From a virus (taxonomy: Duplodnaviria > Heunggongvirae > Uroviricota > Caudoviricetes), in IMG/VR virus record IMGVR_UViG_2563366803_000007, positions 1-42,967 of that record: 42,967 nt of DNA; one strand, 5' to 3'. Both the position numbers and the translations under genes were made by a program. This document shows positions 25,146 through 32,100 of the stretch, one piece after another. How positions within the stretch are numbered: position 1 is the first letter of the stretch; each line of letters begins with the position of its first letter. Below the pieces are notes generated by a model. That model was not told the origin of the DNA. It made no database searches and worked only from the letters and a program-made list of their open reading frames with translations.

Positions 25146-25604
25146 TTATTTCAGGCATTGCGTCCTGATGTATTCCTGCAGGTAGTTGACCTGTGCGGTT
25201 ATCTTGTCGATTCCACTTCGGAGACGGTAATAATTGAGTTCAGCATCTGCTGTAAGTCCTGGGCTTTCTCCATCGCCCATGCCGCTGGCTCCGGTCGTTG
25301 ACTTTGCACAGGTGGCGGCGACTTGCAGGCGCTTACGCCCAGCAGAAACATCAGCACGGAGACTTTCGATAGTCGCGTTAGCATCAGCAAGCTCCTTTAT
25401 GTATCTTGCGTCGAGTTCTGCTACATCACGTTGACGCTTCCGCATGTCAGCGATGGTGGCGTTCGCCTTCTCCAGTTCACTGGCCTTGTTATCGCGCTGC
25501 TCTTTGTAGGCGATTGCGTTATCACGGTAATGATTAACAGCCCATGACAGGCAAACGATGATGCAGATAACCAGAGCGGAGATAATCGCGGTTACTCTGC
25601 TCAT
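25146..25604 (-). CDS. Rz: Spanin inner-membrane subunit Rz (152 aa)
   Basis: N-terminus [31 protein letters not shown] as remembered for lambda Rz. Confidence 0.9.
25199..25390 (-). CDS. Rz1: Spanin outer-membrane lipoprotein Rz1, embedded in Rz in another frame (start uncertain)
   Basis: Embedded ORF with lipobox-like LLGVSAC followed by Pro-rich segment. Confidence 0.55.
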
Positions 25605-26077
25605 ACCTCAATCTCTCTGACCGTTCCGCCAGCTTCTTTGAATTTTGCAATCAGGCTGTCAGCCTTATGCTCGAACTGACCATAACCAGCCCCCGGCAGT
25701 GAAGCCCAGATATTGCTGCAACGGTCGATTGCCTGACGAATATCACCGTGGTCAATCATCGGTAAAGCGCCACGCTCTTTAATCTGTTGCAGTGCCACAG
25801 CGTCCTGGCTTTTCGGAGAGAAGTCTTTCAGGCCAAGCTGCTTACGATAGGCATCCCACCAACGGGAAAGAAGCTGGTAGCGTCCGGCGGCTGTTGATTT
25901 GAGTTTGGGGTTTAGCGTGACAAGTTTGCGAGGGTGATCGGAGTAATCAGTGAATAGCTCTCCTCCTACAATGACGTCATAACCATGATTTCTGGTTTTC
26001 TGACGTCCGTTATCAGTTCCCTCTGACCACGCCAGCATATCGAGGAACGCCTTACGTTGATTATTGATTTCCACCAT
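25601..26077 (-). CDS. R: Endolysin R (lambda-type lytic transglycosylase, 158 aa)
   Basis: Matches lambda R from memory ([24 protein letters not shown]...). Confidence 0.95.
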
Positions 26078-26384
26078 CTTCTATTCCGGCTTTTTTAGCA
26101 GCGAAGCGTTTGATAAGCGAACCAATCGAGTCAGTACCGATGTAGCCGATGAACACGCTCGTTATATAAGCGAGATTGCTACTTAGTCCGGCGAAGTCGA
26201 GAAGGTCACGAATGAACCAGGCGATAATGGCGCACATCGTTGCGTCGATTACTGTTTTTGTAAACGCACCGCCATTATATCTGCCGCGAAGGTACGCCAT
26301 TGCAAACGCAAGGATTGCCCCGATGCCTTGTTCCTTTGCCGCGAGAATGGCGGCTAACAGGTCATGTTTTTCTGGCATCTTCAT
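26061..26384 (-). CDS. S: Holin S (107 aa)
   Basis: Matches lambda S from memory ([22 protein letters not shown]...); dual-start motif MKM. Confidence 0.95.
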
Positions 26385-26626: not shown

Positions 26627-26702
26627 TGGTGCTGGTTAACGGACTTGAACCGCTACCCATTCGCTTACAAGGCGACTGCTCTACCATTGGAGCTAAACCA
26701 GC
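26627..26702 (-). tRNA. tRNA-Thr (anticodon UGU), phage-encoded
   Basis: Manual cloverleaf: 7-bp acceptor stem GCTGGTT/AACCAGC, D stem GCTC/GAGC, anticodon loop CTTGTAA, T loop TTCAAGT, 3' ACCA encoded. Confidence 0.6.
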
Positions 26703-26707
26703 ATATT

Positions 26708-26782
26708 TGGCGGGACAGCGTGGACTCGAACCACGATAAGAAGGTTAACAGCCTTCCGTAATGACCTTTATACGACTGACCC
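26708..26782 (-). tRNA. tRNA-Asn-like (anticodon GUU), possibly degenerate
   Basis: Manual cloverleaf: anticodon stem GAAGG/CCTTC, loop CTGTTAA, T arm CGTGG-TTCGAGT-CCACG, CCA encoded; one mismatch each in acceptor and D stems. Confidence 0.45.
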
Positions 26783-26873: not shown

Positions 26874-27362
26874 CTATGCTACATGTTTAATTTTCTCTAC
26901 ACGTTTCCGGTTTTTAAACGCACTATCCAGAACCGGGTAAATCATAAACAACGAGGCATTGAGGATTTCGTCAACTTCCCGTCGACAGGTTGCGAGCGAT
27001 GGTTTTTGAATGCGCCCGCCGCCCCGGCATAACATCTTGCGAGGTCTTGCGACGCGATGATAGTAAGATGCAATGGCGTGCTTGGAAGAGCCGTGGGCGT
27101 AGTAGCTGAGGAGGATGCCAAAGGCTTTCTTGTCAATGTACATGACGGAATCGACGACCTGAGAAATCAACATTCCATCATCATCATTACACATTGGCCT
27201 TGTCATAACTCTTCCCGGCTCTACGCTCTCCATGAACTTCGCTATTACGCTGCTCATGCGCTTTTCCAGGCGGCCTGAATAAACCCATGCGCCCCACAGT
27301 TCAAGCCAGCCATTCAGCCACTCATGCTGTTCTTTGGTGAGGTTTAGTTCTCTTATGCCCAT
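26874..27362 (-). CDS. Late-gene antiterminator Q-like protein (162 aa from ATG at 27360..27362); not lambda Q
   Basis: Position between ninG and the lysis cassette; GGGAGAAGG RBS; Cys-containing C-terminal region. Confidence 0.6.
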   Translation of the reverse strand: MGIRELNLTKEQHEWLNGWLELWGAWVYSGRLEKRMSSVIAKFMESVEPGRVMTRPMCNDDDGMLISQVVDSVMYIDKKAFGILLSYYAHGSSKHAIASYYHRVARPRKMLCRGGGRIQKPSLATCRREVDEILNASLFMIYPVLDSAFKNRKRVEKIKHVA

Positions 27363-27405
27363 GCGCCTTCTCCCTTGTGATCTGGAATGGTTTTTACTGA
27401 GAACG

Positions 27406-28011
27406 TCATGCGGCCTCACTTCTGCTGTTTCGCAGGTCTTTGAGTTTCTGCTGATACTCCGCCTTGATGGCCCTGCACTCTTCGACAGTCCAGCGATGGC
27501 GGTTATGGTTTGATTCGATTTCGTCTACTGCTTCCTGCCCGATGCGGTTAATCAGTTCGACGCGATACGGAACGAGATTTCCGCTTTTGTGCTGGTTGCA
27601 CACCACGCATTGCTTGTGAATATTGCGTTCATCAAATCGGAGTTGAGGTGCCGCAGCAGTTGTCCGGTAATGCCCGGCATCCCACTGAGCAGACGTGAGC
27701 GTTCCGCACGAGATACATGGTAAGTCGCGGTCTCTTTCTCTGATGAAGGCGTTTACGGCTTGTTGGGCTTGTTTAATCCAGTAACTGCGGGGCTTTAAGG
27801 CGAGTTTTCGAATCTTAAGTTTATCTTTCTGTTTCTGCTCCTCTCGTCGTCGTTTCTTCTCTGCTGCTTTTTCCGCTTTTTTTCGCTGTTTACTTTGTAG
27901 TTTGAGTGCTAACTGAGTTCCGTGTTCCGGGCAGCACCACCACTGATTTGAGAATGCCGGGTGAAACCATTCCTTGCATATTTTGCATTTCCTTCGCGCT
28001 GGTTTAGCCAT
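27406..28011 (-). CDS. ninG: NinG/Rap recombination-promoting nuclease (201 aa)
   Basis: Near-identical to lambda NinG as remembered (MAKPARR...[44 protein letters not shown]). Confidence 0.9.
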
Positions 28012-28180
28012 CGTCTTCTTCCTCGTGCATCGAGCTATTCGGATCGCTCATCAGTTCTGCGCAGCAGTGCTCACACACGTGAACTTCCAGCACATGCAGC
28101 TTCTGACCGCAGTTAGCGCACGTTAAAGCCCGCTCGACGCTTTCTTTCTGGTATTGAATGGATTGGGATGGGCTAAGCAT
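28004..28180 (-). CDS. ninF: NinF (58 aa from internal ATG)
   Basis: [40 protein letters not shown] matches lambda NinF from memory. Confidence 0.75.
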
Positions 28181-28580
28181 GGCTTTCACCATTAAAAAGT
28201 CGCTTGTAAGCATCAATGTCTCGTTTTGCTTCACCGAGCTTTCGTCTTAATTCCATGTTTTCTGATTCAAGCTTTTCCATGTCTTGTTGGTATCGATCGC
28301 GGTGTTCTTTCCATGCTTTTCGATACGCCTTCATGTATGTCGTATTGGCCTTTCTCTTTGCCTGACGAACCGCATGGTGGTTTTTCACAAACCAGTCAGG
28401 GTCGTTAAATGCTGCTCTGGCGCAGGTATACCAATAATTTGTTGCCTCCCTGTTTAGCCAATAAATACTGATAAATGGCAACCGGATAGACACTATTTTT
28501 CGTTGATACTCTTTCTCGCCGAACATGTGCCCTTTTTTGATGCTAAGGCCAAATCCAGGTTGAATTAAAAGCATTGTCAT
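28173..28580 (-). CDS. Hypothetical nin-region protein (135 aa), basic coiled-coil C-terminus
   Basis: ATG overlaps the ninE stop (ATGA); no recognised family. Confidence 0.45.
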
Positions 28581-28753
28581 TTCCTCGCACGATGTCTTAG
28601 CCACCGGATATCCCACAGGTGAGCCGTGTAGTTGAAGGTTTTTACGTCAGATTCTTTTGGGATTGGCTTGCGTTTATTTCTGGAGCGTTTCGTTGGAAGG
28701 TATTTGCAGTTTTCGCAGATGATGTCGGTGATGCTTCGTCGCTGTCGTCTCAT
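28577..28753 (-). CDS. ninE: NinE (58 aa)
   Basis: [58 protein letters not shown] matches lambda NinE from memory; ATGA overlap with ninB. Confidence 0.8.
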
Positions 28754-29160
28754 TCGTACCTCCTGTCGGTAAATCTGACACCCTGACCAATAGCCCATGC
28801 TGTCGTGTACTCAATCAGGCTTGCCATGCGCTTCACGCTCATCTGCGCGCTACTTTCGCGAATGTTGACGTATTCGCCTTCAAGCCCGGGCAAAACATCA
28901 GCTTCCTGCTTTGTTGCCACTGCATGACCGCTGATCAACAAAACCTTCCATTGTTCCGGTTTTAACCATTTTCCGCACCATTGAACCTGACGAGCGATAT
29001 CCGCCAGCATCGCGTGAAATTTTGCGTTCTGGTCAAGATTTCGCTTGTAGTCAGTAATGCGGATCGTGACTGGCTTGTCTTTATCGAGAGGAGTTGAGAG
29101 GATGGCATTTATTGCGGCTTGCTGTTGTTGCTTACTTCGGAGGAAGATTGTCTGCTTCAT
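28750..29160 (-). CDS. ninB: NinB-family recombination mediator (136 aa)
   Basis: Shared blocks with lambda NinB (RSLDQN, QWCGKWL region) and position at the head of the nin region. Confidence 0.6.
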
Positions 29161-29162
29161 CG

Positions 29163-29483
29163 TTACTCCTTCACTTTGACTCCAGCAGCGCGGATGTTTT
29201 CCTCATAAGCATCCATTCCATCGCCGAAGCCATTGGAATAATCAACAGTAAACCCTTTGGCTAATGCTTCTCTGCTGTCGATAAACTTTGGCGCGGTTAT
29301 TTCAATAGCTGATCGCGATGCCTGCCACGTTTGCCAGTGGCCTTGAACATCGTCCATCACGTATTGACCACCAATATTACCACTGCCAATTTCATGGTGA
29401 TTTTCAGGGTAACGGATAAGGTCTGAGGATTCGCCTCCACGTCGCAACCAACTTTCTTCAAACTGCTTTCTTGATTCGTCCAT
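29163..29483 (-). CDS. Hypothetical protein (106 aa)
   Basis: ORF between helicase and ninB; no recognised family. Confidence 0.45.
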   Translation of the reverse strand: MDESRKQFEESWLRRGGESSDLIRYPENHHEIGSGNIGGQYVMDDVQGHWQTWQASRSAIEITAPKFIDSREALAKGFTVDYSNGFGDGMDAYEENIRAAGVKVKE

Positions 29484-29500
29484 CGATACTTACCCTCAGT

Positions 29501-29707
29501 TCAACTCACAAAACGCCACGCCATTTTTGCTACAGCGACAGGCATAACACCGATAATCACCCACAGGAAAATGCTACCGAAAAGCACACCCACCAGGTCT
29601 TTACCTTCGCCTACCAACCGGACAAAACTGCTGGCAACAACAATGAACGTCGCCACCATCCACATAGCACCGAGAATCCTCAATGCAGAGAAAATTAACT
29701 CAGCCAC
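29501..29707 (-). CDS. Small membrane protein, two predicted transmembrane helices (68 aa)
   Basis: Hydrophobic segments ILGAMWMVATFIVVASSFV and LVGVLFGSIFLWVIIGVMPVAVA. Confidence 0.4.
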   Translation of the reverse strand: MAELIFSALRILGAMWMVATFIVVASSFVRLVGEGKDLVGVLFGSIFLWVIIGVMPVAVAKMAWRFVS

Positions 29708-29779
29708 GATTTACCCTCCCCCAAATAAAAAGGCCTGCGATTACCAGCAGGCCTGTTATTAGCTCAGTGATGTAGATGG

Positions 29780-31156
29780 TCATACGTCAGCCCCTTGTGC
29801 ATATCGTCTGCCACGCGCAGCAGGTGCATTTGATGCTGTGCAAATCTGTCTGGCTTCATCCTGGTCACATGCAACAAAGTGTCCGTTACAGAACCGCTGG
29901 TAAACCGTACCAAGCGAGCCAAAACGGTTTTTCGTCACGATGATTTCAGCAAATGGCGCGGCGCTACTGTTCTCGTCATATACCGCTTCCCGATAGAGCA
30001 TGATGATTGAGTCTGCGTCCTGCTCAATGCTTCCTGAATCACGCAAATCTGCGTTTGTCGGGCGTTTGTTTGGTCGCTTCTCAACATCGCGCGAAAGCTG
30101 ACTCAGGGAGATAACCGGTGTTTTCAGGTCTTTCGCCATCGCCTTCAGGCTTCCGGAGATGTGAGCAATTGCGAGGTCGTTGCGATCTGCTTTCGGCTTC
30201 TCAATCAGGCCAAGATAATCCGCCATGATGAGTGACAGGTTTGGATTTTCCTGTTTGTGCCGTTCTGCGATTGAGCGTATTTCTTCGACCGATAACCGCG
30301 AGGCATCGACTACCCATACATCCAAATCTGCAAGCTGACTCATGCCGTTAGCAACGCGCGCCCAGCCTTCGTCATCCATCGATGCAGGATTTCGCAGCAC
30401 GCTAACCGACATCCTCCCGGCGTTGGCAATGCTTCGCTCTGCAATCTGCAATGCGCTCATTTCCATTGAGAAAATCAATACTCCGCGCCGGACGTCAGAA
30501 CCAGGAATAACGCGGCTTGCAACGCCTTCGGCAATCTTCAGCGCCAGTTCGGTTTTCCCCATGCCAGGACGGGCAGCGATTATCACCAGGTCTTCCGCGT
30601 TCATCCCTCCGGTGATGACATCAAGTTCTTCGATTCCGGTCTTCAGGGTATCTGACTCTTCTCCGTTCCTCAGACGCCTGTCAAGCGTGTCAGTGTAGTC
30701 AGTGATGATTTCCCCTAACCGTACAGGTTTAACCTCGTCACGGGGCTTTCTGATGGCTGAAAGACGTTTTACAAGCTCGTCCATCGCCTGACTCGATGCG
30801 TCGATGGTTCCGCTCTGAATTGGTTCACGCATTTCATCCATGATTTCCAGCACCAGACGGCGGTGATAGTTATCCGCGACCATTCCGGCATATCCCTTCA
30901 GGTTTGCGGCGCTCGGGCAGTTTTTGCTGGTCATCAGGATTGACGTGAAATGCTCCTCTCCGCACGCCTCGGCAACCATCAGCGCGTCGATTAGGTTTCT
31001 GTTTCTCGCCTGCTTGCGGATAACCTCGAAGGCTTTCCGGTAGAGCGGAATTGAAAACGCTTCCGGCTCTAGCGTTGCCAGAACGTCGCTGGCGGTTGGT
31101 GTTAATCCACCAATCAGCAGGCCACCGATAACGCTCGCTTCGATATCCTGTCTCAT
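29780..31156 (-). CDS. DnaB-type replicative helicase (P22 gene 12-like, 458 aa)
   Basis: Walker A GMGKT in [17 protein letters not shown]; DnaB-like C-terminal region. Confidence 0.85.
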
Positions 31157-32100
31157 GCAATCCCCCTGTCTGCAAACTTCCCTTCCCGAACTCCCGTTAA
31201 CGAGTCTTCTCTCAGCAGGTAATCAAAATCAGCCGTCCAGCCCGTGTCGTTGTCTCCGAAGTAAAACGGCTTGGCCTGATGCACAAACGCCCTGACATAC
31301 GCTCTGAAACCGTCCACGTTTGGCGTTTTCAGTTGCGGGATGATTTTCTTCAGGCGGCGTTTGCGTTTCTCGTTGACCGCAACAGCGTGTGGAAGTCTGT
31401 CACCGACTTCGGTGTTGTAGGCGTTCAGGAAGGATTCGTAGTCGATTCGTTCTGCCTTTCGACGTTCAGGTTTAACCTGCCCATCGCCTCCCCCATTGGG
31501 GGGTAGGGGGGTATTATTTATATTCTTGTTAATACCTTCTTGTTCATGATGTGCGGTTGTTTGTGCGGCTTCATGTGCGCTTTCATGTGCGGCATGCACT
31601 CTGAAAGCCGCGCCATTGCTGGCTTCGTCATGTGCGGCATCATGTGCGGTTGTTTGTGCGGCTTCATGTGCGGGTGAATCGTCCATTTTTTGAGCATATT
31701 CATGGTAATTTGTGATGGTAATCACACGACCTTTTTGCTTCTCTCCATCAATGGTGATCATCCCCTCTTTCACAAAAACCTGAAGCATCCGCTCAACCTG
31801 ATCACGGCTTGCTGGCTTGCCATGCCTGTCGCATAACTGAAGACCTAAATCAGCTGCTGTCACAACCAGTTGACCGGGTTGCAGATGCCATTCATGACCT
31901 TTGAAATTCGCTTTGTATGGCTTTCTGGCGGCATTCAGGAGAAGGTTTTCCCACAGGGTACGAAGATAAACATCTTTCGCCCATGACTGTTTCAGAATGC
32001 TCCGGTACAACGGAATGTAACCAGTTTTCTGGTTCTCCATCCTGTTGCTCCTGCGCTCGTGTGCGGCGCTGAAATCGTAGATTTTTGCTGTATTGCTCAT
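31153..32100 (-). CDS. Replication initiator (O / P22 gene 18-like, 315 aa) containing the origin iterons
   Basis: N-terminus [10 protein letters not shown] resembles lambda O (MTNTAKILNF); internal repeated HEAAQTTAH peptides encoded by iterons; upstream of helicase. Confidence 0.7.
31548..31673. repeat. Origin iterons: about eight copies of (C/T)ATGTGCGG at 12-bp spacing inside the O-like gene, next to a G-rich/AT-rich tract (31501..31540)
   Basis: Direct repeats read from sequence, arranged as two near-identical ~35-bp blocks. Confidence 0.7.

Follow-up and report, generated by a model that had tools for sequence, protein, structure and literature searches.

The window analyzed here (the whole stretch of 42,967 nucleotides of a Caudoviricetes genome, IMG/VR record IMGVR_UViG_2563366803_000007) encodes a 68-aa two-helix membrane protein and a 106-aa acidic soluble protein between the replication module and ninB. 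We tentatively regard them as dispensable, delayed-early accessory genes of the nin region: the membrane hairpin may bind a specific membrane partner, and the 106-aa protein may act by binding or modulation. The identity of the two genes and the logic of their expression are well supported; no homology was found that links either protein to any activity, and neither matched a family of known function or a solved structure. Published accounts describe the nin genes as dispensable under laboratory conditions and, for the most part, without a known function (PMC5630979, PMC8022706), and a literature search by family, by gene name and by nin-region membrane proteins returned no paper on either gene.

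Locus layout and expression context

The preliminary description had placed two small ORFs at 29163-29707, at the replication/nin junction between a helicase gene and ninB; these coordinates are exact, both ORFs lie on the minus strand, and their neighbors are indeed a DnaB-type helicase upstream and NinB downstream. The features of the locus are as follows.

32100..31153, minus strand: replication initiator (PF04492)
31156..29780, minus strand: DnaB-type replicative helicase, last gene of the replication module (PF03796, E 2e-77; PF00772, E 4.6e-13)
29722..29754, minus strand: tR2-type intrinsic terminator, stem-loop AGGCCTGC-TGGTAATC-GCAGGCCT (29754..29731), then TTTTTATTT
29714..29722, minus strand: Shine-Dalgarno sequence GGGGGAGGG of the 68-aa gene, 6 nt 5' of the GTG start
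29707..29501, minus strand: gene of the 68-aa two-helix inner-membrane protein, GTG start (phrog_1165; HK022 gp58 / Lahn2 ORF69 type)
29483..29163, minus strand: gene of the 106-aa acidic soluble protein, ATG start (PF26207 Phage_phiTE_015 / phrog_343; HK022 gp59, Sf6 gp48 type)
29160..28750, minus strand: NinB/Orf recombination mediator, downstream neighbor (PF05772, E 7e-56; phrog_72, E 2.6e-53)

Together with ninB-ninE-...-Q, the two genes make up a closely packed operon of the early-right transcript. The spacer between the helicase gene and the 68-aa ORF is 72 nt, that between the 68-aa and 106-aa ORFs is 17 nt, and the gap between the 106-aa ORF and NinB is 2 nt; the Shine-Dalgarno sequence of the 106-aa gene (GAGGG) is located inside the 17-nt spacer 3' of the 68-aa gene, and that of ninB is contained in the last codons of the 106-aa gene (GTGAAGGAGTAA; KVKE, stop). 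The gene order 3' of NinB is NinE, a 147-aa ORF, NinF, NinG and Q. The 147-aa ORF between NinE and NinF (28173-28616, minus strand) matches phrog_1511 (E 9e-85), a family of unknown function, and has no Pfam match. The interval from the Q antiterminator gene (26874-27419) to the holin gene (26061-26384) contains genes for tRNA-Thr(TGT) and tRNA-Asn(GTT) (26627-26702 and 26708-26782, minus strand); in Stx phages, this position is occupied by tRNA genes that precede the toxin genes. The prophage is mosaic: the best single phage records, HK544 and CUS-3, cover only 39% of positions 18000-42967, at 96-97% identity.

The terminator scan gave a stem of 8 pairs, 6 of them G-C, with a loop of 8 nt, and the hairpin is retained in both the MFE and the centroid folds. 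With a fold z-score of -0.82, the 76-nt terminator segment does not stand out, and the call is based on the hairpin with its U-run, on conservation, and on annotation in related phages, where the equivalent element is designated tR2 (HK620 and Lahn2) or rho-independent terminator (mEp235). The GTG codon of the 68-aa gene is located 23 nt past the terminator stem. All 84 viral loci have the terminator 5' of the 68-aa gene, and all 84 keep GGGGGAG(A/G)G, a TAAATC-type spacer and then GTG. When the terminator-plus-Shine-Dalgarno linker (29708-29775 of the window) was compared with the equivalent stretch in L085, L088, L090, L092 and L003, nearly identical nucleotides were found before three allelic types whose proteins are only 44-59% identical. 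Judged from this alignment, one conserved linker fronts at least three allelic types and is a conserved mosaic joint with diverged cargo. An Rfam scan of the window matched two tRNAs alone, so no known RNA element accounts for the conservation.

A consensus scan found no sigma-70-like promoter in 28500-30300; because the scan was for the sigma-70 consensus only, low-level expression in lysogens could still occur. In the established lambda model, N antitermination lets RNA polymerase pass tR2. The conserved GTG and Shine-Dalgarno sequence, with a tR2-type terminator directly upstream, thus identify the 68-aa gene as the first gene of an N-dependent nin operon, and the terminator, the lack of a promoter and established lambda biology together suggest that both genes are delayed-early, lytic and silent in the prophage. 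Both would be translated only during lytic growth, once N-modified RNA polymerase had passed tR2, and would be off in the repressed prophage.

The 68-aa membrane protein and its relatives

The 68-aa protein matches phrog_1165 over its full length (residues 1-68 on 1-68 of 68, E 3.5e-37), and its gene is that known as HK022 gp58 (AUM59826.1), Lahn2 ORF69 (CAJ26394.1) and Stx2-converting phage 86 orf69. Residues 2-68 of the protein are the same in the copies of HK75, HK629 and HK630; identity is 95.5% to the copy of Stx2a phages (Stx2-converting phage 86 orf69) and 93.9% to HK022 gp58. More diverged types are found in HK620 and H-19B (56-59% identical) and in Salmonella P22-like phages (44-46% identical), along with a few metagenomic relatives of 63-66 aa (33-41% identical); relatives at 33-59% identity retain the length, the two-helix pattern and the helix-2 motif. 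Relatives of the 68-aa protein were collected as 205 protein clusters, and those of the 106-aa protein as 225. The family of the 68-aa protein is evidently narrow, as a search of the full library representatives gave only 17 matches, mostly fragments of the same cluster.

By tblastn, the 68-aa gene was found in 107 of 50,697 phage records, all of them lambdoid or P22-like and from Escherichia and Salmonella; 48 of the 107 are Stx2a-converting phages, and most Stx2a-converting phage records found here carry it. Some part of the 641-bp segment that includes the gene was matched in 2061 of 5426 complete E. coli genomes, in which the gene is annotated as "hypothetical protein" or "membrane protein". 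Its position is always the first after the replication module, whatever the type of module, which may end with a DnaB helicase, with lambda P plus ren (H-19B), with an IstB/DnaC-like loader plus a 96-aa ORF, or with a primase-helicase plus an HNH protein. On its 3' side it abuts ninB directly or is followed by a PF26207 gene or by other small ORFs, and in every case it precedes a PF26207 gene, NinB or NinE. HMM searches of all ORFs in the window found no paralogs of either the 68-aa or the 106-aa family.

All 84 viral loci keep the reading frame intact and begin it with GTG. In frame, the median pairwise dN/dS is 0.31; the two shifted frames give 0.48 and 1.21. This signal of purifying selection is consistent but modest, and 0.31 is only moderately below 0.48. 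Variable sites are distributed 33/22/41 by codon position, the third being not strongly favored, and many of the changes at first positions exchange one of L, I, V and M for another. Comparison with relatives shows that both ORFs are evidently real genes; for the 68-aa gene, diverged relatives that have kept its length are a stronger argument than dN/dS.

Reference records mis-annotate the 68-aa gene, which is also easily confused with "ninA". In mEp235 and HK630 it is annotated as 52 aa from an internal ATG (mEp235_046 and HK630_052; L001 2896-3054 and L002 2501-2659), and in HK75 it is likewise 52 aa long; the conserved Shine-Dalgarno sequence and GTG, and the conservation of the first 16 residues in diverged alleles, favor 68 aa over 52 aa. 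It is missing from the annotation of HK620 (AF335538 12378-12584; L003 2569-2775) and of H-19B (AF034975 8088-8294; L094 2001-2207), each of which has a homolog of the 68-aa gene, 56% identical, in the apparent gap that follows tR2. Codon 15 of the copy in H-19B is an in-frame stop, which indicates either a pseudogene or a sequencing error.

The protein is very hydrophobic (GRAVY 1.49) and has a pI of 10.0. The two strongly hydrophobic helices that had been noticed in the sequence are borne out by Kyte-Doolittle maxima (19-residue window) of 2.15 at residues 11-29 and 2.49 at residues 41-59, and by an AlphaFold2 model built from an alignment of 21 relatives, in which helices 2-33 and 38-67 are predicted to form a hairpin about the turn E34-D37 (EGKD) with a mean pLDDT of 87.4. 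The charge distribution, which is the sole basis for the orientation, suggests an N-in/C-in topology in which K/R10, K61 and R65 face the cytoplasm and the turn R30-D37, which is net-neutral, lies outside. The protein has small-residue motifs (G40xxxG44, G53), a conserved proline in helix 2, and a short C-terminal tail with two charges only.

Alignments of the relatives display the helix-2/tail motif F..W..IG..PV..AK.AW and conservation of W16, V32, G35, D37, F47, W49, G53, P56, V57, K61 and W64, as well as of a basic residue at position 10. Conservation clusters in the turn, helix 2 and the C-terminal tail, and helix 1 drifts: mean column entropy is 1.7 in TM1 versus 1.3 in TM2 and 1.04 in the tail. 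TM2 has only a weak helical conservation moment (0.19). The family is shallow, with most members more than 84% identical, and the conservation pattern hangs on about a dozen diverged sequences. Scans of the protein against Pfam, NCBIfam and PADLOC gave no match, comparison of the family profile with PDB sequences gave only chance-level hits (E>0.09), and a fold search of BFVD with the hairpin gave nothing significant, as expected of a simple hairpin, the sole holin having an E value of 8.7.

The 106-aa protein and the PF26207 family

The 106-aa protein is predicted to be soluble and acidic (pI 4.9, GRAVY -0.84) and is matched by phrog_343 (E 1.1e-29). It had been described as unrecognized, which holds for scans against Pfam, NCBIfam and PADLOC, none of which gave a match; yet its 98% identical relative P0121 carries PF26207, as do, by precomputed assignment, all 120 of the 120 relatives among the matches listed. 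The protein can thus be assigned, indirectly and through its relatives, to PF26207 (Phage_phiTE_015). A Pfam scan of five relatives, P0121 among them, also gave no match, and the copy of Pfam that was scanned was evidently without the PF26207 model. The 106-aa protein is 72.6% identical to HK022 gp59 (AUM59827.1), 60% identical to mEp235_047, and 35% identical to Sf6 gp48; PF26207 relatives are encoded by Sf6, by P22-like phages, and by virulent phages that infect Salmonella, Klebsiella, Yersinia, Hafnia and Pseudomonas. No name beyond "hypothetical" was found for PF26207 proteins in the records of these relatives or in the phage records compared.

PF26207 proteins are two-part mosaics: an N module spans residues 1-62, a C module spans residues 63-106, and the two reassort independently. 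The conserved core consists of S4, R5, F8, E9, W50, W53, S56, R57 and E61, of which R5, F8, W53, S56, R57 and E61 are invariant in the N module. Some members (P0139, P0223, P0191) have an N-terminal CxxC...CxC extension, which is zinc-ribbon-like, or a further N-terminal domain, and a common ending of the family, ...AAG(V/I/L)KVKE, overlaps the ninB Shine-Dalgarno sequence. The particular combination of modules in the window is uncommon: 99% identity to the 106-aa protein was reached in only one phage fragment record, and at least 80% of the 641-bp segment was covered in only 53 of the 5426 E. coli genomes.

In the AlphaFold2 model of the 106-aa protein, of middling confidence (pLDDT 69), two conserved helices are arranged around a disordered glycine-rich loop. 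A fold search with this model found no PDB match at E<=0.001, and its matches in BFVD were uncharacterized phage proteins only; searches of PDB sequences with the single sequence and with the family profile gave only chance-level hits (E>0.09). The protein is built on a conserved two-helix core that carries reassorting variable segments, an arrangement suggestive of a small binding or modulator protein of variable specificity.

Possible functions and comparison with known systems

In our tentatively preferred reading, the 68-aa protein would, as predicted, span the inner membrane as a helical hairpin with both ends in the cytoplasm (N-in/C-in) and engage in sequence-specific intramembrane binding, either to itself or to a conserved inner-membrane protein of the host or phage. 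Conservation in the turn, helix 2 and the tail, with a variable helix 1, points to such binding, and the hairpin may use the conserved second helix and tail to contact another inner-membrane protein. The idea of a specific partner is one that we infer from where conservation falls in a shallow family. The protein would tune host physiology in lytic development, and not act as a generic membrane-disrupting toxin.

It is unlikely that the 68-aa protein is a host-killing or membrane-permeabilizing factor, a holin- or viroporin-like hairpin that would form oligomeric pores or depolarize the membrane in lytic growth. Its size and predicted two-TMD N-in/C-in topology, like those of the class II holin S21, its G40xxxG44 and G53 motifs and its conserved helix-2 proline would all suit a pore-forming protein, and silence in the prophage would let a toxic gene persist; however, its C-terminal tail is short with two charges only, its residue-specific conservation is unlike that of holins and Hok/TisB-type toxins, which tolerate wide sequence drift, and early pores would abort the phage's own cycle. 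The gene is also located in the early operon, away from the endolysin, no Pfam holin family matched the protein at E<=0.1, and the phage has its own lysis genes. The lysis cassette of the window (25146-26384) comprises a lambda-S-type holin (PF05106, 26061-26384, E 2.4e-30), a putative endolysin ORF and Rz. The 158-aa ORF between holin and Rz (25601-26077, minus strand) presumably encodes the endolysin; no Pfam family matched it at E<=0.001.

Some small inner-membrane proteins of phages exclude other phages by acting on DNA entry, as exemplified by HK97 gp15, P22 SieA and T4 Imm. That the 68-aa protein is likewise a superinfection-exclusion or defense factor, keeping the DNA of other phages from crossing the inner membrane, we consider improbable. 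Such a role would suit a small inner-membrane protein of a temperate phage that is as widespread as this one (some part of its segment was matched in 2061 of 5426 complete E. coli genomes), and an arms race could account for three diverged allelic types that share a single conserved linker. However, the intrinsic terminator directly before the gene and the lack of a promoter-like site make expression in a lysogen unexpected, so that exclusion from the prophage state is disfavored; exclusion confined to the lytic period could occur but would be less beneficial. PADLOC defense models matched neither the 68-aa nor the 106-aa protein (0 families at E<=1). The hint of host killing or exclusion in the preliminary description is thus partly disfavored by the context of the gene, and the searches of PADLOC, Pfam, NCBIfam, PDB and predicted folds gave no match that speaks for or against it.

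A more particular proposal, that the 68-aa hairpin is a specific regulator of a host inner-membrane machine, for which FtsH/HflKC, a DNA-entry transporter and a membrane-bound abortive-infection system are candidates, has a low probability. If it held, the protein might influence the choice between lysis and lysogeny, exclusion during the lytic phase, or escape from defense, and its three allelic types would mirror adaptation to different targets.

The two proteins might instead work as a pair, the hairpin serving as membrane anchor or receptor for the soluble PF26207 protein, and this we consider quite improbable. A PF26207 gene begins 12 to 17 nt after the 68-aa gene in 39 of 80 loci, the same arrangement occurs with the diverged E. 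coli 68-aa allele (L088-L090), Salmonella loci have a PF26207 gene close downstream, separated by a 51-aa ORF or an IS element, and a weak PF26207 gene is found even near the most distant 68-aa relative (L091). On the other hand, the 68-aa gene abuts ninB in half of the loci, with no PF26207 gene, Sf6 and many virulent phages have PF26207 proteins but no detectable 68-aa homolog, and PF26207 modules reassort independently of the 68-aa allele. The IS element was seen in a Salmonella prophage (L086 4344-5491), in which an IS3-family transposase gene lies between the 68-aa homolog and the PF26207 gene.

It is very improbable that one or both ORFs are non-functional and that conservation reflects the recent spread of a DNA segment (terminator linker, recombination junctions): most 68-aa copies are indeed more than 90% identical, the codon-position counts (33/22/41) lack a strong third-position skew, the flanking linker is itself highly conserved, and the H-19B record has an in-frame stop, but relatives at 33-59% identity retain length, frame, both helices and the motif, a strong Shine-Dalgarno sequence and intact frame are found in 84 of 84 loci, dN/dS is 0.31 against 1.21 in a shifted frame, and the PF26207 family extends across several phage genera.

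As it stands, the finding is an ordinary one that matters little, since it recovers two lambdoid nin-region genes that are already cataloged as hypothetical in many phage records. The membrane gene is nevertheless very common in E. coli prophages, including Shiga-toxin phages, tightly conserved, and located in a clean N-dependent context; this prevalence, conservation and context make it a cheap candidate for deletion and expression work.

Several known genes resemble the 68-aa gene in location or form. NinA of P22 and HK620 shares its location between the helicase gene and ninB, but is a 27-aa ORF, 84 nt long in HK620 and SPN9CC, which begins at the stop of the helicase gene and runs over the tR2 hairpin. 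An identification of the 68-aa gene as ninA was rejected, as ninA is annotated separately, upstream, in HK620, SPN9CC and Lahn2. The comparison with the P22 ninA region that the preliminary description had proposed finds NinA to be a separate ORF over the terminator, and neither ORF of the window matches a P22-type nin gene of known function. Lambda Ren, like the 68-aa protein, is the product of a small accessory gene at the lambdoid P/nin junction, but is not homologous, is not membrane-bound, and is encoded before tR2, whereas the 68-aa gene comes after it; in lambda, only about 70 nt lie between ren and ninB. Neither Pfam nor PHROG linked the 68-aa protein to Ren, and this identification too was rejected, since H-19B has ren, the terminator and then the 68-aa homolog in tandem.

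Class II holins such as S21 of phage 21 (68/71 aa, two TMDs) are similar to the 68-aa protein in their length of about 70 aa, two transmembrane helices and predicted cytoplasmic ends, but are encoded in the lysis cassette, whereas the 68-aa gene belongs to the early-right operon and has no evident dual-start motif. A holin identity was rejected on account of the early operon, the lack of a holin-family match and the presence of the phage's own holin. For a protein that acts on a specific partner, a working analogy only is offered by Gp11 of the staphylococcal phage PhiNM1, which is reported to be a small membrane protein encoded among the early genes that acts on specific host membrane-associated targets; with phage and host both unrelated, no sequence relationship is to be expected (PMC11237401).

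The closest counterparts are the nin-region genes of other lambdoid phages. HK022 gp59, mEp235_047 and Sf6 gp48 belong to the same family as the 106-aa protein and occupy the same slot before ninB; compared with HK022 gp59, the 106-aa protein is a less common recombinant in which an HK022-type N module is followed by a C module that is combined in other proteins with different N modules. The 68-aa gene shares with HK022 gp58, Lahn2 ORF69 and the HK75 type its place directly after tR2, and is in substance the same gene.
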